A stretch of 52,581 nucleotides of DNA from Promethearchaeota archaeon (GTDB taxonomy: Archaea > Asgardarchaeota > Lokiarchaeia > Sigyniarchaeales > SOKP01), in assembly GCA_048938855.1 (NCBI GenBank), contig JBHLLT010000021.1:1-52581 (forward strand), given 5' to 3'. Position 1 is the first letter of the stretch. Every line of letters starts with the position of its first letter. The notes under the pieces were generated by a model, which saw only the letters and a list, made by a program, of their open reading frames with translations, had not been told where the DNA came from and searched no databases. Position numbers and translations under genes: made by a program. Below, piece after piece: positions 1,281 to 45,471 of the stretch.

Positions 1281-2705
1281 TCAAATAATTTTCCATTGTG
1301 GCCCATCTGGAGTATCTTCAAGCTGAATCCCCACTTTTCTCAATTTTTCTCTGATGTTATCACCGAGTTCATAATTCTTTTCTTTTCTTGCCTGTTCACG
1401 AATATCTATAACAATATCCATCAATTCATTTAATTTTACATCTGACCCGACTTCAAATTTAGTGAAATCAAGTCCAAAAATTCCTAAGAGCTCTAGTAAT
1501 ATTTCTTTTGCTTGATTGAGGAGTTCCTTCTTATTATCTAATGAGGAATTTATTTTCTTAATAAATTCGTATATAGCAGCAAGAGCTTTGGGATTGTTAA
1601 AATCGTCATCCATTGCCTCTTCAAAATCATTTCTAACACTTTTAATTGCTTCATTAAGAGTTTCTTTATTTCCGCCCTTAGAATTGTCTATAGCATTTAG
1701 ACAATTTCTTATTTTTTCAATGTTATTCTTTGCATTCTCAATAACTTGAAGATTCCAATCAACTGCAGATCTATAGTGTCCAGACACAAGCCCCATTCTT
1801 ACAATAAGACCTCCATATTCATCAATCAACTCTCGGGCAGTTACATAATTTCCAAGACTTTTACTCATTTTTTTGCCGTTTAAAGTAATAAATTCAGCAT
1901 GCATCCAGTAGTTTACAAATTTTTTTCCTGTGGCTGCTTCGGATTGGGCGATTTCATTAGGGTGATGAGTTGGAATATGATCTATTCCCCCACAATGAAT
2001 ATCTAAAGTCTCTCCTAAATATTTCATTCCCATTACTGAGCATTCTAGATGCCATCCGGGATATCCTTCACCCCAAGGAGAGTCCCATCTCATAATATGG
2101 ATTTGATCCCCTTTTCTTGCGTTTAACCATAAAGCAAAATCAAAATAATTTTTTTTTAACGGATCCTGGTCTACACGTGCCTGAGCTTTTTCTTCATCAA
2201 GTTTTAATCTTCCAAGTTTTCCATAATCTTGAAATTTCGTTGTATCATAATATATATTTCCTTGTACTTCATAAGCATAACCCTTGTCTAATAAGATTTT
2301 AATGACGTCTATCATATCTGGAATAAGTGCTGTAGCTCTAGGGGAGATATTTGGTCTTTGAATATTCAGATCATCAATAACTTCCCAATACTCTTTTATT
2401 TGTATGTCAACTAATTCCCACGGATTGATCTTTTGTTCTTTTGCTCTTTTCTCAATTTTATCTTCGCCTTGATCTGCATCATCAGTTAAATGACCGACGT
2501 CAGTAAAGTTTTGAACGTGGAATACATCATAACCTTTATATGTTAAGTATCTAATAACTACGTCCCATGAGCTATATGTCCTTGCGTTTCCAATGTGCAC
2601 ATCGTCATACACAGTTTGCCCACAAGTATATATTCTAACTCGACCTTCTTCTATTGGTTTAAAAACCTCCTTTTGTCGAGTCATGGTATTATAGATTTTA
2701 AGCAT
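1281..2705 (-). CDS. cysS: Cysteine--tRNA ligase
   Basis: CGQTVYD..HIGNAR, PGWHLECS, HHPNEIAQSEA and KMSKS motifs. Confidence 0.97.
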   Translation of the reverse strand: MLKIYNTMTRQKEVFKPIEEGRVRIYTCGQTVYDDVHIGNARTYSSWDVVIRYLTYKGYDVFHVQNFTDVGHLTDDADQGEDKIEKRAKEQKINPWELVDIQIKEYWEVIDDLNIQRPNISPRATALIPDMIDVIKILLDKGYAYEVQGNIYYDTTKFQDYGKLGRLKLDEEKAQARVDQDPLKKNYFDFALWLNARKGDQIHIMRWDSPWGEGYPGWHLECSVMGMKYLGETLDIHCGGIDHIPTHHPNEIAQSEAATGKKFVNYWMHAEFITLNGKKMSKSLGNYVTARELIDEYGGLIVRMGLVSGHYRSAVDWNLQVIENAKNNIEKIRNCLNAIDNSKGGNKETLNEAIKSVRNDFEEAMDDDFNNPKALAAIYEFIKKINSSLDNKKELLNQAKEILLELLGIFGLDFTKFEVGSDVKLNELMDIVIDIREQARKEKNYELGDNIREKLRKVGIQLEDTPDGPQWKII

Positions 2706-2782: not shown

Positions 2783-5647
2783 TTAATTTTTTACTTCTAT
2801 AAAAACCTCAACGATTTTATTTTCAATTTTTAATTTCTTTATGTCTGTTTTACCTTCTAAGTTTTGAATAATAGTGTCAGCTTGTATCATTTTCTTGATA
2901 TATTTCTCATGTTTTTCTAGTGATTTTGAAATATCTTTATCAACTATTTTTAAATATAGATCAATTCGATTGTTCGTTGAGAGATTGAGTTGTTTTCTGT
3001 AATTGTTCAAATGTCTGATTAGATTTCTAGCAATACCTTCCGATCTTAATGTCGATGTAATTTTGGTGTCTAATTCAACTGTAAATTCTGACTCATCATG
3101 TTTATCAATAGTTACCTTTTTAACATTTATAGCTTCGGCTATAATTTCTAAATATTCGTTTTCAAGCTTTACTCCTTTAATGGTAAGTTCATTTAAGACT
3201 TGTCTTATTGGAATTTTTGCATTATCTCTTAATTCTAATGATCTTTTTACTATCTCTCTTGTTAATTCCATGTTTTTTAGAGTTTTAATATCAATTAAAT
3301 CTTCATTAGATTCAGGCCAAAACTCTAAATGAACTGATTTTAAATTAACAATCCCATTATTCCTAAGTTTCTGGTATATCATCTCAGAAATAAATGGTGT
3401 TAAAGGACCTAATAGTTTTGCTAAATTTGTTAATACATACGACAATGTATTCATTGCTGATAATTTTTCATTTATATTTTCACTCTTAAATCGGTTTCTG
3501 CTGTTTTTAATATACCAAGTAGAGAGATCCTCAATGAAGTTGAATAATAACCTACTAGCCTCTGATGTATCATAATCATCCATTAGTTGCGTAATATCTC
3601 GTATAAGGCTATTCAATAAACTAATCATCCATCGATCTAAAATATTATCTGATTGTAGTTTATCCGCATTAATCTCATCAATATCGATTAATGAATAAAA
3701 CTTTAACACATTAGCTAACAATAAATTAAATCTTCTATAGATTTGTTTCACTATTTCCTCTTTAAAGCTTAAATCTTGAGCCCTCATTAATTGTGATGAC
3801 ATAAGATAAATTCTTAAAGCATCAGCTCCATATTTCTCTATTATCAGGTTTGGGTCAGGATAGTTTTTTTTGGATTTTGACATTTTAGTTCCGTCTTCGC
3901 CAAGCAAATTACCATTTACTACAACATTTTTAAACGGAATTTCGTCAAATAGTAGAATTGATATTACATGCATATAGTAAAACCATGCTCTAACCTGACC
4001 AATATATTCTGATACAAAATCACTCGGGAAATTTTGCTTAAACCATTCAATATTTTCAAAAGGATAATGTTTTGCAGCATAAGGCATTGAACCCGATTCC
4101 AACCAACAGTCAAACACCTCTGATATACGATTCATTACTTTATTGCAACTTGGACATTTAAGATGGATTTTATCAACTATGTGTCTGTGTAGATCAAGAT
4201 TATCTGGAACTTCTTCAATCGCATTTTCTTGTAATTCTTTCACTGATCCAATTACTCTAATTTCATTACATTCTTCACATTCCCAGATGGGCATTGCTGT
4301 AGCCCAAAACCGATTTCTCGAAATACACCAATCAGGAGCGTTCTCTATTATCTTTTGATATCTATATGAAATTTCTTTTGGATACCAATTTATATTTTTA
4401 TTGGTTTTTAAAAGTCTCTGCTTAATTTTTTGAATGTTTATAAACCAAGCATCAAGAGCATTATATATTAATGGTGTATTACATCTATAACAGAAGGGAT
4501 ATGAATGCGTATAATCTTCTGATTCATATAAAAGATTCCGATGATGTAGATCCTCCAAGACCTCACCATCTACATCTTTAAACCATAAGCCAATCCAATC
4601 TTTTGGACCATCGGCTAACTCACCATGCTCATCAATATGTTGAATCATAGGAAGATCATACTTATTTATCATTTCATAATCAAATTCACCATAAAGTGCT
4701 ATATGAATAATTCCTGTTCCTTCTTCAGATAATACTTCATCGCCACCATCAATTACCCGATAACCTTTTTTGTCTCTCATAGTTGAAATTTGATATAAAG
4801 GTTTATACTCCTTATTTAACAATTCTTTCCCTTTAAATTCCTCAATTATTTCATATTCCTCTTTGATGTTTTCTAATTTGTTATTTATTAAGATGAAAAA
4901 TTCACCATTAACCTTTACTTTAACATATAGTTTCTTACTATTTACAGCTAAAGCCACATTTCCAATTAAAGTCCAAGGAGTTGTAGTCCACGCTAGAAGA
5001 AATGTTTTTTGTTCTTCTCTTAATTCAAATTTTGCTATAACTGATTGTTCAGTAACCTCCTTATAACTGTTATCCATAGAAATTTCAAAATTAGAGAGTG
5101 GAGTTTCACATCTTGGACAATAAAACAAGACTTTTTTACCTTTATATATAAGACCATCAGTATATATCTTTTTAAAAATATACCACACAGTTTCCATATA
5201 AGTATTATCCATAGTTTTATATGAATTATCAAAATCTATCCACTTACCCATTCGATCAACAGTTTTTTTCCATTCATTAGCATACCAAAGCACTTTTGAT
5301 CGACAAAATTCATTAAATTCTTCAACACCCATCTGATAAATTTCATTCTTCTGCCTTATATTTAAAGCTTTTTCACAAACACTTTCTATAGGAAGCCCAT
5401 GACAATCCCAACCCCATCTCCTCTCACAACGATGTCCTTTCATTGTCCAATATCTTGGGAATACATCTTTTGTTACAATGCTTAATATATTGCCATGTTG
5501 AGGTAACCCAGTAGCAAATGGAGGCCCATCATAAAATATATAAGGATTATCTTTAGGTCTTTGCTCCACACTTTCTTCAAATATTTTGTTATCCTTCCAA
5601 AAATCTATAAGTTCTATTTCCTTTTCAATATATGATATTTTAAACAC
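2783..5647 (-). CDS. ileS: Isoleucine--tRNA ligase (type 2, archaeal/eukaryote-like) with variant HIGH motif
   Basis: DGPPFATGLP, GWDCHGLPIE, WTTTPWTL, WCISRNRFW and KMSKS motifs; GTG start. Confidence 0.96.
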   Translation of the reverse strand: MFKISYIEKEIELIDFWKDNKIFEESVEQRPKDNPYIFYDGPPFATGLPQHGNILSIVTKDVFPRYWTMKGHRCERRWGWDCHGLPIESVCEKALNIRQKNEIYQMGVEEFNEFCRSKVLWYANEWKKTVDRMGKWIDFDNSYKTMDNTYMETVWYIFKKIYTDGLIYKGKKVLFYCPRCETPLSNFEISMDNSYKEVTEQSVIAKFELREEQKTFLLAWTTTPWTLIGNVALAVNSKKLYVKVKVNGEFFILINNKLENIKEEYEIIEEFKGKELLNKEYKPLYQISTMRDKKGYRVIDGGDEVLSEEGTGIIHIALYGEFDYEMINKYDLPMIQHIDEHGELADGPKDWIGLWFKDVDGEVLEDLHHRNLLYESEDYTHSYPFCYRCNTPLIYNALDAWFINIQKIKQRLLKTNKNINWYPKEISYRYQKIIENAPDWCISRNRFWATAMPIWECEECNEIRVIGSVKELQENAIEEVPDNLDLHRHIVDKIHLKCPSCNKVMNRISEVFDCWLESGSMPYAAKHYPFENIEWFKQNFPSDFVSEYIGQVRAWFYYMHVISILLFDEIPFKNVVVNGNLLGEDGTKMSKSKKNYPDPNLIIEKYGADALRIYLMSSQLMRAQDLSFKEEIVKQIYRRFNLLLANVLKFYSLIDIDEINADKLQSDNILDRWMISLLNSLIRDITQLMDDYDTSEASRLLFNFIEDLSTWYIKNSRNRFKSENINEKLSAMNTLSYVLTNLAKLLGPLTPFISEMIYQKLRNNGIVNLKSVHLEFWPESNEDLIDIKTLKNMELTREIVKRSLELRDNAKIPIRQVLNELTIKGVKLENEYLEIIAEAINVKKVTIDKHDESEFTVELDTKITSTLRSEGIARNLIRHLNNYRKQLNLSTNNRIDLYLKIVDKDISKSLEKHEKYIKKMIQADTIIQNLEGKTDIKKLKIENKIVEVFIEVKN

Positions 5648-5746
5648 CTATCTTACTTATTTTTCAATCTCAATCATTTTAACTTAAAAATTTTAAAAAA
5701 ATAATTTAATTAACATATTTTAGTTTATATCATAAATGTCGAAAGC

Positions 5747-5897
5747 TTTATTCATGAAGCAGGATGTGGAAACAAAAGCTAAGAAAATTCACTTCATAAA
5801 TAAATGAATTTAGATAATAATAATCGTGGATATGATCATAATTATATTTTTTACAAAACCTAAGAATTTACTGATAATATTCATAGCTTCCACATCC
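5747..5897 (-). promoter_or_regulatory. Putative structured ileS 5' leader (attenuator-like, alternative helices)
   Basis: Perfect inverted repeat 5888-5897/5762-5771; 14-bp helix (two G-U pairs) 5791-5804/5747-5760; the two helices cross. Confidence 0.65.
5810..5884 (-). CDS. Putative Ile-rich leader peptide MNIISKFLGFVKNIIMIISTIIII
   Basis: Read by hand: ATG at 5884, TAA at 5812-5810; 10 of 24 codons are Ile, with four consecutive before the stop; lies directly upstream of ileS. Confidence 0.65.
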   Translation of the reverse strand: MNIISKFLGFVKNIIMIISTIIII

Positions 5898-5964
5898 ACT
5901 TTATATTTTAAATAAAGTAAAATGCTCTAAAAAATATTACGGTATTTTACTAATTTTTTTAACT

Positions 5965-9624: not shown

Positions 9625-10185
9625 ATGGGAGAAAAAAAAAATAAAGAGTGGGCATTAAAACTAGCAATATTAGGAGATCCCGCTGTAGGAAAAACGTCCT
9701 TGATTAATAAATACATCAGTAATTCATTTAAGGAAGACTACTCTCCAACACTAGGAGTAAATATTGTATCAAAAGATGTAAGAATTAAAGAAATCAATTC
9801 CAGAATTCGTTTACTCTTATGGGACATAGCAGGGCAAGATAAATATGAACTAACGCGTCAGAACTTTTTTCAAGGATGTGTTGGAGCATTTCTAGTTTAT
9901 GATATAACACATTACTCATCATTTAGTCAAATTAAAACAAAATGGTTAGAAGATTTTAAAAAATTCAGCAGACCTAATGGTGTTTATATTTTAATAGGTA
10001 ATAAATCGGATTTAAAAGAATCAAGTAACGTATCTTTTGAAGAAGGAAAAGCTCTATCTGAAGAAATTAATGCTGCTGAGTTTATAGAAACATGTGCAAA
10101 GTATGGTGATAATGTTGAGGAAGCCTTTAAAAAATTGGTAATACATATCCTAAAGAGAAATGGTGTAATCTTTAAGGAAAATTAA
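9625..10185 (+). CDS. Rab/Ras-like small GTPase
   Basis: G1 GDPAVGKT, G2 PTLG, G3 WDIAGQ, G4 NKSD, G5 ETCAK. Confidence 0.95.
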   Translation: MGEKKNKEWALKLAILGDPAVGKTSLINKYISNSFKEDYSPTLGVNIVSKDVRIKEINSRIRLLLWDIAGQDKYELTRQNFFQGCVGAFLVYDITHYSSFSQIKTKWLEDFKKFSRPNGVYILIGNKSDLKESSNVSFEEGKALSEEINAAEFIETCAKYGDNVEEAFKKLVIHILKRNGVIFKEN

Positions 10186-10229
10186 TAAAAATAAATATGT
10201 GATTAATTAATAATCCAAAATAAACAGTT

Positions 10230-10796
10230 ATGATTGGAGATTATAAAGGATTTGTAAAAAATAAAGTAGTAGTAGCACTACTCCAAGCCTATCATGATAT
10301 ACTTGATTATGATGGGATGAAATCAATTTTGAAAGAAGCAGGAATGATGCACATTAAAGATCTAAGAGATAAAGATCCTAATGATACATTAGATTTTTTC
10401 TCTTTTAAAAAAATCATATCTGCTCAAAATTGTCTATTATATGAGTCCTCTGATCTCCTTTTTGAAATCGGAAAGAAATTTTCATTTTATTTATTCCCTT
10501 TTGGAAAAAGATTTGAAGAAATTATCCATGAGATAAATTCTTTTATTATGACAGATTGGAAAGTAAGTATTATTGGAAATTGTGAAAATGAAATCTCTAT
10601 AAGTGTAGAGCGATGTATCTTTTGTTCTGAGATTGGAGTTCCTTGTGATTTATTCAAAGGCTTCTTATTCAATTCATTACAAAAATCCTTACCATCAGAG
10701 CACAGAGTTATTTATGATAGAGAATTAAATAACGTAAATAATCCCTCTCATAACACGTTTATAGTTAAGTTAAAAATTGTCAAAAATATTAAATAA
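10230..10796 (+). CDS. V4R/HNOB/Bet3-fold-like protein
   Basis: Helical N-terminus, LFEIGKKF, and C-terminal CIFC..PCDLFKGFL typical of V4R domains. Confidence 0.6.
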   Translation: MIGDYKGFVKNKVVVALLQAYHDILDYDGMKSILKEAGMMHIKDLRDKDPNDTLDFFSFKKIISAQNCLLYESSDLLFEIGKKFSFYLFPFGKRFEEIIHEINSFIMTDWKVSIIGNCENEISISVERCIFCSEIGVPCDLFKGFLFNSLQKSLPSEHRVIYDRELNNVNNPSHNTFIVKLKIVKNIK

Positions 10797-10921
10797 GTAA
10801 AAAACGAAATTTAAGTTATAATTAGATTTAATAAAAGAAATCCAATTCTCAAATAATATGTAATTTTTAAAAAATTGAAAAAAGTATTATATATTCCTAT
10901 AACAAAATATTAAATTGCACA

Positions 10922-11476
10922 ATGACAACCGAAGAAACTAATTTCGATCGAGAATTCGTGTACAAAATAGTTATTTTAGGAGATGCTGCGGTAGGCAAAA
11001 CATCTTTGATAAATCGATTTGTGGAAAATTCATTTTCAGAAGATTACCGTGCGACGCTAGGAGCAAATATTGTGAGGAAAGATGTCAATCTAAATAACAC
11101 AAAGGTTCGATTGATAATGTGGGACCTCGCGGGGCAGGAGAAATATCAAGTTGTGCGCAGCATGTATTTTCAAGGATGTCAAGGTGCGTTACTTGTTTAT
11201 GATGTGACTCGTTATAGTACTTTTGATAGTATAAATTCTAAATGGTTACGAGATTTTAAGAAATTTGTTAAAAAAGAGGGAGCATATATCTTAATAGGAA
11301 ATAAATCTGATTTAGCTGACCAAAGAACAGTAACAAAAGAGCGGGGAAAAGAGATAGCGAATAAAATCAAAGCTAGCCACTTTATTGAGACAAGTGCAAA
11401 AATGGGAGAAAATATTGAAGAAGCCTTTTCACTTTTAGTGAATCAAATCTTAAACAATCATGGTGTAGAGATTTAA
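10922..11476 (+). CDS. Rab-like small GTPase
   Basis: GDAAVGKT, WDLAGQEKY, NKSD, ETSAK. Confidence 0.95.
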   Translation: MTTEETNFDREFVYKIVILGDAAVGKTSLINRFVENSFSEDYRATLGANIVRKDVNLNNTKVRLIMWDLAGQEKYQVVRSMYFQGCQGALLVYDVTRYSTFDSINSKWLRDFKKFVKKEGAYILIGNKSDLADQRTVTKERGKEIANKIKASHFIETSAKMGENIEEAFSLLVNQILNNHGVEI

Positions 11477-43254: not shown

Positions 43255-45471
43255 TTGGCAGCTTTCGAAGTTATTTTTACGATCTTATTAAATGCTCTTC
43301 CTATACTATTACTATTTATTCCCTTATTCTTTATATGGAAAAAAACTTTTGGTAAATTGTATCTAAGAATAATTTTGGGTATTACAGTATTTTATACTAT
43401 CTATTGGATTCTCCCTATAATATTTCAATTTGGAGAAACTCCGGACGAGTTAGGTGTACCTGTTTCAGAAGAAGGCAACATCGCATATGGAATCGGTTAT
43501 ATTTTTGCGCATTTGGGATCATTAATTGCACAATTTTTTTCATACCCAATAGTTACGCTACCTTTTATATTTTTAATCGCTCCTTTTATTTCAGTAATCC
43601 TTTTTTGGAACAGACTAAGGAAAGAAGATGGTACAATAAAATCAAATTTGGAGCATGTAAGTTATGAATTAAAAGAAAGTCCTTTAGAACAAACTAAAAA
43701 GGCTTTAATAAGAAATAACTGGTCTCGTGAGAAGCAAATTCTGAAATTAATGATCGTATTACTACCAATTTCACTATATTTGATGCAAGTTATCCTTCAA
43801 ATTTCTGGTTTAACAGCAGAAACACTAACTTCTGGGACGACTGCTTTAGGATGGTTCTTAGAAATATTGTTTGTCTATTTAGCAATCTTTATTTTTAGCG
43901 TTGAAATACTTTTCTCTAGTCAAGTCGCTTTAAAAGGAAGATTTTTTGGTGAACAGATAAGAGAACAAACTTATAAAAGCCTATATACGATAGGAACACC
44001 AATGTCAGTGTTTTCAGTTATATTATTTGCAATACTCTATGTAGATTCAATCTCTATAGTCATTTATTTTTTTGCGTATTTCATAATGGCATCAGTGATA
44101 TTTATATTATTTATTGACATCTTTGAACCAATTTCCATTTTAATTTTTATAAAAGTAATTGATTGGTGGAAACATAGAAAATCTCGGAAGGTCAGAACCA
44201 AGAATTTTTACTATATATTAATCTTTGGAGCTTTAGCACTGGTATCTTACTTCATTATAAATTTGGTTCTGACTAGTTTTGTATATGCCCCTCTATTCGG
44301 CGAACCAGGATCACCAGAAGAATTAGCGATCTATAACGCAGGAGCATATGCAGCTGTCGATCCAACTCTCTCTCTAATTCTTCAATATGATCTACTAATT
44401 ATTTACGGAATAATTATAACAGAAATTATCCCTGCATTGATTTTGACATTATTTCTCGCTTATGGATTAAAATTCTTAAAAAGTAAAGGACTAGGTATAT
44501 CTATTTATTTGCCTATAATCTTAGTACTCTCAATTATTATTATTATAGGGAGTGGAAACATTTATTGGTTAACCGGAAAAACTAGTTATACCAGAGTCTT
44601 TGGGTTTGATTTCTACACTTTAAGATCAGCCAGTTTAAATGCTGAATTAACAGATTTCTTGTATATATTAGCGGCACCATATCTGTATACACGGTACGTC
44701 TTTAACATAATACTCTGGAGTTTAATTATCTTCTATTTTAGAAAAAAGTTTAGAGTTAAAAATATCAATTTAGATGAACAACATATAAAGAAAATTATAT
44801 ATTCTACTGTTAAAGATTTTCCTATTTTTGAAGATTACGCTAAGAATGAAGATGAATATTTAATCTCTAGGCGCGAAGATATTGAATTAGAATACATTGA
44901 TAAAGAGCGAGAAGAAATAAAAAGCATCATGCAAAAAATAGGAGATAACATGTTACTTGAAGAATTAAAACCTGATGATGAAAACGAGATGAAACGGTTT
45001 TATTTTACCCTAAGATATCTTTATAACAACGGTTTAGTTTATATATTTAAACCTGAAGCAAGTTATGTGTTTGAACCAGTTGAAAAACAAGGTCTTTACA
45101 TTATTTATGATGATGGAAGAGGAGTGTATAACTATGCTTTTAAAAGCGATGCTGAACAGGATCCGGGGCTTGTATCGGGAATGTTTTCTGCAATAACTTC
45201 ATTTGTTAAAGAAATGACAAAATCTACAGAAGCTCTGAAAAAAATTGATCATGGAGATATCACTATTCTATTAGAATATGGAGACCGAATTTTTGGAGCT
45301 TTATTTATCAAAGGAAATCAAACTACTGAAGTTAGGACACCCTTAAAAGAATTTGTAAAGAAATTTGAAGCTCAATACGCTGAAGCTTTAAAAAATTGGA
45401 CGGGTTCACTTGCATTGTTTAAAAAAGATCTAAATGATAAGTTAGTAGAAGATATGTTTAAGGAAGAATAA
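43255..45471 (+). CDS. Polytopic membrane protein with cytosolic winged-helix-like and C-terminal longin-like domains
   Basis: More than 10 TM segments, then soluble tail GLYIIYDDGR...DPGLVSGMFSAITSFVKE...LKEFVKKFE..Y...L..W.G. Confidence 0.7.
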   Translation: MAAFEVIFTILLNALPILLLFIPLFFIWKKTFGKLYLRIILGITVFYTIYWILPIIFQFGETPDELGVPVSEEGNIAYGIGYIFAHLGSLIAQFFSYPIVTLPFIFLIAPFISVILFWNRLRKEDGTIKSNLEHVSYELKESPLEQTKKALIRNNWSREKQILKLMIVLLPISLYLMQVILQISGLTAETLTSGTTALGWFLEILFVYLAIFIFSVEILFSSQVALKGRFFGEQIREQTYKSLYTIGTPMSVFSVILFAILYVDSISIVIYFFAYFIMASVIFILFIDIFEPISILIFIKVIDWWKHRKSRKVRTKNFYYILIFGALALVSYFIINLVLTSFVYAPLFGEPGSPEELAIYNAGAYAAVDPTLSLILQYDLLIIYGIIITEIIPALILTLFLAYGLKFLKSKGLGISIYLPIILVLSIIIIIGSGNIYWLTGKTSYTRVFGFDFYTLRSASLNAELTDFLYILAAPYLYTRYVFNIILWSLIIFYFRKKFRVKNINLDEQHIKKIIYSTVKDFPIFEDYAKNEDEYLISRREDIELEYIDKEREEIKSIMQKIGDNMLLEELKPDDENEMKRFYFTLRYLYNNGLVYIFKPEASYVFEPVEKQGLYIIYDDGRGVYNYAFKSDAEQDPGLVSGMFSAITSFVKEMTKSTEALKKIDHGDITILLEYGDRIFGALFIKGNQTTEVRTPLKEFVKKFEAQYAEALKNWTGSLALFKKDLNDKLVEDMFKEE

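Follow-up and report, generated by a model that had tools for sequence, protein, structure and literature searches.

A Candidate Ribosome-Read Isoleucine Switch in the Leader of an Asgard Archaeal ileS Gene

The leader of an ileS gene found in two genera of Asgard archaea is very probably a genuine isoleucine switch that is read by the ribosome. Comparison of 47 aligned leaders supports three helices that covary as pairs in the mRNA strand, a conserved upstream open reading frame (uORF), conserved spacings, and a link to ileS. Segment A, the strand at the 5′ end of this architecture, can pair with either of two partners (segments E and C), and folding calculations predict that its choice depends on the footprint of a ribosome on the uORF, which is presumably translated. 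With moderate confidence we propose that the leader gauges charged tRNA-Ile and exerts feedback on ileS, that pairing of A with E together with B:D represents the OFF state and pairing of A with C the ON state, and that the output is at the level of RNA.

Leader-peptide attenuation is a textbook bacterial mechanism. As proposed here, the ileS leader would follow the same logic with a different topology. If it works in this way, the archaeal lineage that is closest to eukaryotes would be shown to regulate a gene through coupling of transcription and translation. The leader would also provide a portable substrate of 250 nt with which to ask whether the archaeal ribosome and RNA polymerase are functionally coupled, and whether the termination factor aCPSF1 acts conditionally inside a leader.

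Architecture of the leader

The leader lies within a 317-nt gap that has a TraB-like gene on one side and a 954-codon ileS on the other (Table 1). The window, meaning the whole stretch of 52,581 nt that was analyzed, comes from an assembly that is 97% complete and has a G+C content of 30%. The first-pass annotation of this window described two crossing RNA helices around an isoleucine-rich uORF on the minus strand, and these pairings are indeed present. The core of A:C joins 5897-5888 with 5762-5771 through 10 of 10 Watson-Crick pairs. Its extension joins 5887-5876 with 5778-5789 through 10 of 12 pairs (the exceptions are two U-U oppositions) across a 6-nt bulge. The B:D stem joins 5804-5791 with 5747-5760 through 14 of 14 pairs, two of which are G-U, and a 15th pair (G-U, 5790:5761) is possible. 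Because the segments are arranged in the order A-B-C-D, the A:C and B:D pairings do cross. A local hairpin that was proposed to compete for B (5810-5803 with 5793-5786) exists, but it is the weakest helix of the leader and has only one compensatory pair.

A further helix had been overlooked. Positions 5899-5891 of segment A can pair with 5826-5834, a segment within the uORF that we call E, to form 9 bp, or 10 if one G-U pair is counted. This A:E helix is the third strongest in the leader. Since A:E and A:C both use strand A they are mutually exclusive, and both covary.

Helices of this quality are not expected by chance. None of 1500 dinucleotide shuffles reached the strength of even the best single helix, and none of 797 intergenic windows from the same genome held an equally strong crossing pair. 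The folding energy of the whole region is unremarkable (z = -1.8). The signal is carried by specific helices and their conservation, not by overall fold stability.

Segment A also resembles a ribosome-binding site. Apart from one mismatch it matches the 3′ end of 16S rRNA, and 6 nt separate it from the uORF AUG, a distance within the Shine-Dalgarno (SD) spacing that this genome prefers. The leader had no match in Rfam at E ≤ 1, and the leaders of two relatives had none at E ≤ 0.5. Assignment to the T-box class or to another Rfam riboswitch class was rejected on this lack of a covariance-model match.

Table 1. Features of the ileS leader and its surroundings, in window coordinates
Feature	Position	Strand	Basis
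Candidate distal promoter, made up of a BRE-like element (5943-5937) and a T-rich TATA-like box (5934-5926)	5926..5943	-	T-run spacing to A
Proximal candidate: TATA-like TTTAAAAT, located 28 nt upstream of the uORF AUG	5905..5912	-	Weak genome-wide motif peak at -29/-30
Segment A: strand that switches partner (E or C); also the SD-like site of the uORF	5888..5899	-	Core invariant in 47 leaders; 16S 3′ end and SD spacing
Extension of A, includes the uORF AUG; partner is 5789-5778	5876..5887	-	73% of cells paired; weak in the g28 core clade
Leader ORF: 24 codons, 10 of them Ile, with four terminal Ile codons and a stop	5810..5884	-	Open in 47/47 leaders
Segment E: Ile-Ser-Thr codons directly before the Ile run; second partner of A	5826..5834	-	A:E 95% paired; RNAalifold consensus
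Ile codon run (putative sensor codons)	5813..5824	-	Conserved in leader alignment
Segment B: 5′ arm of the B:D stem	5791..5804	-	B:D 91% paired
Stretch of the B:D loop rich in U; holds the 6-nt bulge and 5789-5778, which pair with the A extension	5772..5789	-	U4 not retained in the g28 core clade
Segment C: fully complementary to A; one nucleotide separates it from D	5762..5771	-	A:C core 99% paired
Segment D: 3′ arm of the B:D stem	5747..5760	-	Loop of 27-30 nt in 46 of 47 leaders
Downstream U7 and U5 tracts, possible termination zone in own genus	5686..5701	-	Sequence; weak or absent in the g28 core clade
ileS SD-like AGGUG (5649-5645) and probable non-AUG start AUA (5638-5636)	5636..5649	-	Orthologue start-codon comparison
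ileS (putatively regulated gene)	2783..5647	-	TIGR00392, 826 bits
cysS	1281..2705	-	77 nt downstream of ileS

Distribution and conservation

The 47 aligned leaders come from 30 genomes of the same genus, nine genomes of its sister genus, and eight metagenome contigs. Three further leader loci are known beyond these, one of them with an IleRS of 65% identity. A covariance-model search of 135 genomes from one Promethearchaeia (Loki) family returned 39 matches, which are exactly the genomes that carry this clade of ileS, and no significant match in the other 96. The same model revealed no paralogous element in the family; one weak match (E = 0.03, in genome G006) is not leader-like. A pattern scan of 400 genomes across the phylum placed the element in two genera only, with five stray matches that resemble chance, and a metagenome pattern scan yielded eight true leaders among the 120 matches listed. 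All leaders, apart from those on metagenome contigs, belong to two genera of one family.

The uORF is open in all 47 leaders, spans 20-25 codons, and begins with AUG in 46 and GUG in one. It always lies upstream of ileS and always terminates in a run of three to five Ile codons. Three AUU codons are invariant, and AUU accounts for 53% of Ile codons genome-wide. Neither the core of A nor the Ile run varies, and C is 98% conserved, compared with only 74% for uORF codons 2-16, which also tolerate in-frame deletions. Spacings are nearly fixed as well: C and D are separated by 1 nt in 46 of 47 leaders, and a distance of 15 nt from the end of E's Ser codon to the uORF stop is kept in 43 of 47.

These patterns bear on whether the 24-residue peptide itself might be the functional product, with the helices merely tuning its own translation. 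The peptide is hydrophobic, and A:C with its extension hides the SD and AUG of the uORF. A functional peptide would fit poorly with the variability of codons 2-16 (column identity 0.74) and their tolerance of deletions, with the invariance of three AUU codons at the nucleotide level when other Ile codons are in common use, and with an ORF that never strays from ileS. We consider this the most improbable of the explanations weighed here.

Covariation and the location of the promoter

Covariation was measured on the alignment of 47 leaders (A2), and changes were placed on a tree of IleRS sequences. The paired fractions of the helices (Table 1) are accompanied by compensatory changes in each, which bears out the earlier claim of a conserved, switch-like RNA. 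In the A:C core, two pairs have changed on both sides; changes here are few and mostly single events on the tree. In B:D, 8 of 14 pairs are compensatory, including a change from G-C to A-U in the core clade of the second genus (g28). Three pairs of A:E are compensatory, and one of these (5898:5827) changed from U-A to C-G in g28 at a position outside the A:C helix. The extension that had been suggested to bury the uORF AUG has four pairs with compensatory change, and its pair 5886:5779 has changed on both sides at least seven times, which supports that suggestion. Many of the other compensatory changes are single events on the IleRS tree. In one relative (G114), both E and C carry changes that match a single substitution in A.

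RNAalifold, run without hints, returned A:E plus B:D. A scan of the whole leader as far as the ileS start ranked A:C, B:D, and A:E as its three best-conserved helices.

Segments A, E, and C are in effect copies of one motif in inverted orientation, and A is invariant. Such features would also be expected if the three segments were DNA sites for a transcription factor and transcription began, leaderless, at the uORF AUG so that A lay outside the RNA. The proximal TATA-like box, 28 nt before this AUG and near a weak leaderless peak in the genome, could serve such a start. However, G-U oppositions on the mRNA strand greatly outnumber A-C mismatches (45:1 in A:E and 68:8 in B:D), and therefore pairing in mRNA is favored over repeats in DNA. 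Compensatory changes also reach beyond the shared core (5898:5827 in g28, the extension pair, and B:D), A has an SD-like sequence at an SD-like spacing, and protein-binding sites would leave the invariant Ile run unexplained. We therefore regard DNA sites as very improbable.

The choice of promoter is relevant because only one of the two candidates would include A in the transcript. The distal box would direct a start near 5905-5900, with A in the RNA. The proximal box is a rival candidate that would give a leaderless start and exclude A. In 39 of 46 leaders a T-rich element stops 30-31 nt short of A, from which a start near 5903 would be expected. A promoter motif model derived from the genome scored the distal box better in 28 of 47 leaders, a model that is too weak to choose between the boxes. 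That A is transcribed is argued mainly from its covariation, which speaks against a start at the uORF AUG, the case that the first-pass annotation had itself named as fatal to its idea.

A model for ribosome-dependent refolding

Given two alternative partners for the strand that also serves as the leader's ribosome-binding site, the position of the ribosome could determine which helix forms. When charged tRNA-Ile is plentiful, the ribosome would pass the Ile codons, reach the stop codon, and depart. The A:E helix would form behind it, leaving C unpaired, and B:D would then close around C to complete the OFF fold. When charged tRNA-Ile is scarce, the ribosome would stall on the AUU run and cover E. 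Segment A would be free as C emerges, and A:C with its extension would form before D appears, yielding the ON fold. OFF is assigned to A:E plus B:D and ON to A:C on the expectation that uncharged tRNA calls for more of its synthetase. At a distance of 15 nt between the end of the Ser codon in E and the stop codon, a stall would free A at the very moment that C emerges.

Folding calculations are consistent with this sequence of events. For RNA that extends as far as C, the median probability of A:E is 0.99, whether the RNA is free or has a ribosome at the stop codon. It is 0 when the ribosome sits at least two codons before the stop with footprints of -12 and -15, a zero that is imposed by the constraint. 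With a footprint of -18, A:E forms in the calculation only after the ribosome is released. At equilibrium, once C exists, A:C beats A:E: the A:C fold is favored in 36 of 47 leaders, by an average of 3.4 kcal/mol. Because of this greater stability, the OFF fold must be a kinetic product, presumably one that is trapped as the RNA is made. The initial view that segment B, just after the stop codon, is the main ribosome-sensitive element is not supported as it stood. That role probably belongs to E, inside the uORF.

A related model, close to the one put forward in the first-pass annotation, retains the same sensor and gives B a larger part. In the stalled state, A:C and B:D would stack as a coaxial pseudoknot that masks all pyrimidine-rich RNA (ON), and in the replete state a ribosome at the stop codon would cover B and leave naked U-rich RNA to be terminated. 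The 1-nt gap between C and D and the nearly fixed loop length would suit coaxial stacking, B begins within the footprint of a ribosome at the stop, and a U4 tract is present at some point between the stop and D in 43 of 47 leaders. A rough estimate places the pseudoknot at about the energy of the nested A:C fold (median difference 0.3 kcal/mol, with the pseudoknot better in 21 of 47), a figure that depends on an assumed penalty. Against this model, the covarying extension would fill nearly the whole loop, which should be sterically hard to reconcile with B:D, and D is made about 45 nt after B, late to protect it. We judge this model an unlikely alternative, albeit the strongest of those considered, and continue to favor the exchange of A between E and C.

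How the switch might act on ileS

If the leader is a true isoleucine switch, its output is probably termination or cleavage of the RNA. Most likely the RNA would be terminated early or cleaved, within the B:D region or beyond it, and aCPSF1 (FttA) is the obvious candidate reader. This conclusion was reached because masking of the ileS SD lacks support and a route through frameshifting or read-through is excluded. No helix of at least six pairs with the ileS SD is conserved in any group of leaders, so SD masking was set aside. Frameshifting or read-through was likewise rejected, given that all frames close early and none is open from the uORF to ileS; indeed, all three phases of ileS relative to the uORF occur. 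An output at the RNA level, as originally surmised, is thereby left as the likeliest kind.

A switch that instead acts on translation or stability of full-length ileS mRNA, by masking the SD or by delivering ribosomes to a weak AUU or AUA start, would account for the lack of a terminator and for the poor start codon of ileS in this clade. It has a precedent in mycobacterial poly-Cys attenuators (10.1101/834739), and C is partly complementary to the ileS SD region in some leaders. But beyond the missing SD helix and open frame, SD accessibility is alike in the two folds (0.44 vs 0.41), and the distance from D to the ileS start is variable, ranging from 75 to 120 nt and reaching about 230-240 nt in one locus (L285). 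We consider this possibility improbable, more so than the pseudoknot.

As had been noted from the outset, a classical hairpin followed by a U-run is absent: a scan for bacterial-type terminators found none, and the sequence after D is A-rich with no terminator-like U-run. It had further been suggested that exposure or masking of the U-rich stretch beside C constitutes the output. This idea does not hold generally, because a U4 tract in the B:D loop is the rule outside the g28 core clade (31 of 35 leaders) and the exception inside it (1 of 12). In the core clade, U4 is instead located in the 5′ arm of B, and the loop forms a small GAAA hairpin. The element predicted to be commonly exposed in the OFF fold is C itself.

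Short U tracts are nonetheless frequent in these leaders, at variable positions. Between the stop codon and D, 43 of 47 leaders have at least one U4 tract and 19 have at least two, which must be read against the 72% of stop codons genome-wide that are followed by one. Between D and the SD, every leader outside the g28 core clade has a U4 tract, as do half of the core-clade leaders. U tracts beyond D are strong in the genus of this genome and weak in g28.

Archaeal termination by aCPSF1/FttA at U4 tracts has been described at transcript 3′ ends (PMC8716108, PMC13675443), and in M. maripaludis U4 tracts are read by a Loki aCPSF1 (PMC8716108). We found no published report that aCPSF1 acts within a regulated leader. 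All five relatives examined, four of which bear the leader, have the gene. No aCPSF1 complete with its KH domains turned up in this 97%-complete assembly, probably due to an assembly gap. A role for aCPSF1 as the reader of the leader is plausible.

Comparison with known leaders

Well-known bacterial leader-peptide transcription attenuators include pheM-pheST, ilvL, and trpL of E. coli. The ileS leader resembles such systems in that a short ORF with a run of cognate codons precedes the cognate synthetase gene, and in having three competing helices that are protector-, antiterminator-, and terminator-like, one partner of which would be covered by a stalled ribosome. Other examples are the three-hairpin attenuator of C. 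glutamicum ilvBNC (PMC11857589) and the predicted attenuators of Streptomyces leuS and trpS (PMC1262725). Unlike these bacterial attenuators, the ileS leader has an archaeal host, lacks a G+C-rich hairpin with a U-run, and uses its own 5′ SD as the switch strand. An AU-rich stem comes last, closing a loop of 27-30 nt and trailed by A-rich sequence. The pairings cross because the switch strand reaches over 125 nt into the loop of this stem. Full membership in the class of classical transcription attenuators was rejected: the ORF and mutually exclusive helices are present, and an intrinsic terminator is not.

Two further points of comparison are actinobacterial. In the leaderless small ORFs of the mycobacterial poly-Cys attenuators (10.1101/834739), cognate codons also end the ORF, a stalled ribosome blocks a duplex, and there is no intrinsic terminator. 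However, their duplex hides the downstream ribosome-binding site, whereas the ileS leader has no such conserved pairing and its uORF has its own SD. Classification as a translational attenuator of the poly-Cys or ermC type was rejected because there is no switchable helix over the downstream ribosome-binding site. The LEU element before actinobacterial leuA (PMC1262725) likewise combines a leader peptide, in which cognate codons form a run, with a conserved pseudoknot or an alternative hairpin, and it lacks a terminator. As judged from its description, its base stem pairs the codon run with the leuA SD; in the ileS leader, by contrast, it is the leader's own SD that is paired, and its partner is the codons ahead of the run. 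The same source cites evidence that the Leu codons do not matter in the LEU element. Membership in the LEU element class was rejected, as the ileS leader has no conserved helix between its codon run and the SD of ileS.

Rho-dependent attenuation at E. coli tna, as cited in PMC1262725, and termination by aCPSF1/FttA offer a parallel in that ribosome position would gate access of a factor to pyrimidine-rich RNA. The ileS leader differs from aCPSF1/FttA terminators in having no binding site that is conserved in position. The pair of ileS1 and ileS2 genes in Bacilli (10.1101/2022.02.09.479832) is similar in that one of two IleRS genes carries an RNA leader that senses uncharged tRNA-Ile. There the sensor is a T-box; here there is none, sensing would proceed through translation, and some near-complete relatives revealed no ileS other than the one with the leader. 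The literature searched, for which older claims on archaeal trp leaders were outside the scope, contained no demonstrated archaeal leader-peptide attenuator. Archaeal uORFs have been reported as candidates only (PMC11456600).

The ileS gene and its relatives

The start codon of ileS is probably unusual. At the corresponding position, 18 of 20 leaders in this clade have AUU or AUA, compared with AUG in 20 of 24 others, and a GGUG SD is followed after 6 nt by the AUA or AUU. An in-frame GUG is followed by a stop codon in three genomes (G024, G036, and G069), and a standard start codon is likewise absent at this position in G114. Alignment of these genes suggests that ileS probably starts with AUU or AUA in most of this clade. 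The cysS gene downstream is possibly co-transcribed with ileS.

The HIGH motif of the encoded synthetase (5500-5489, minus strand) reads QHGN. Among 109 close relatives in which the motif was read, 14 have QHGN, 86 HYGH, and 8 HYGN. Because QHGN is confined to 14 of these relatives, the change is recent and not general to leader-bearing copies.

A second IleRS of 1048 aa is encoded on another contig (C34) of the same genome, and inspection of the gap upstream of its gene revealed no ORF with an Ile run. In four relatives (G150, G114, G061, and G006; completeness 90-100%), the leader-bearing gene is the only ileS found. It is consequently not merely a backup copy, and its presence alone suggests that it has replaced the canonical ileS in these genomes.

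In a tree restricted to IleRS proteins other than the canonical 1048-aa copies, leader-bearing enzymes form a supported clade whose nearest outside relatives include one Micrarchaeia IleRS. Three loci of such outside relatives were examined and carry no leader, and for this reason the leader may have arisen within the family. At another locus (L287:1302-1378, plus strand), a tRNA-Ile gene with a UAU anticodon lies directly upstream of a DPANN-like relative of this ileS. Archaea normally read AUA with a modified CAU anticodon, and UAU is unusual.

Other leaders of similar design

A second leader with the same plan and an unrelated sequence precedes leuS in this genome (L312, G000:C55, about 64890-65060, plus strand), and it is conserved in the 30 genomes of the genus that were checked. 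Its 28-codon ORF ends in a Leu run. A helix lies over the codons before this run, followed directly after the stop by a stem of ~14 bp with a 29-nt U-rich loop, and a downstream purine-rich segment may pair with the loop. We advance, only tentatively, the broader idea that Asgard archaea evolved their own form of ribosome-mediated transcription attenuation. In such a scheme, a 5′ strand would or would not enter the loop of a stem, depending on the leader ribosome, and the outcome would be read by the CPSF73-family nuclease aCPSF1 and not by an intrinsic terminator or Rho; the same plan would serve leuS and perhaps other amino-acid genes.

Several additional loci were encountered during these searches. 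A 15-codon ORF with three Trp codons lies upstream of a trpB2-like gene (L313, G000:C45, about 43873-43920, plus strand). A genome scan for leader peptides that required an SD is evidently not sensitive, because it missed both the leuS and trpB2 leaders. In a 6.0-Mb single-contig genome from another family (G055, locus L025), a 37-codon ORF that ends in four Ile codons and Arg precedes a canonical-type ileS. It has no recognizable A, C, B, or D segments, and such an ORF was present before no other canonical ileS checked. A bacterial T-box-like leader with a terminator precedes an ileS on a 6.8-kb contig in an Asgard bin (L083, G085:C163); this is probably a contaminant contig or a recent transfer. 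Elsewhere in the window, a V4R-like gene is situated between two small GTPase genes (9625-11476, plus strand).
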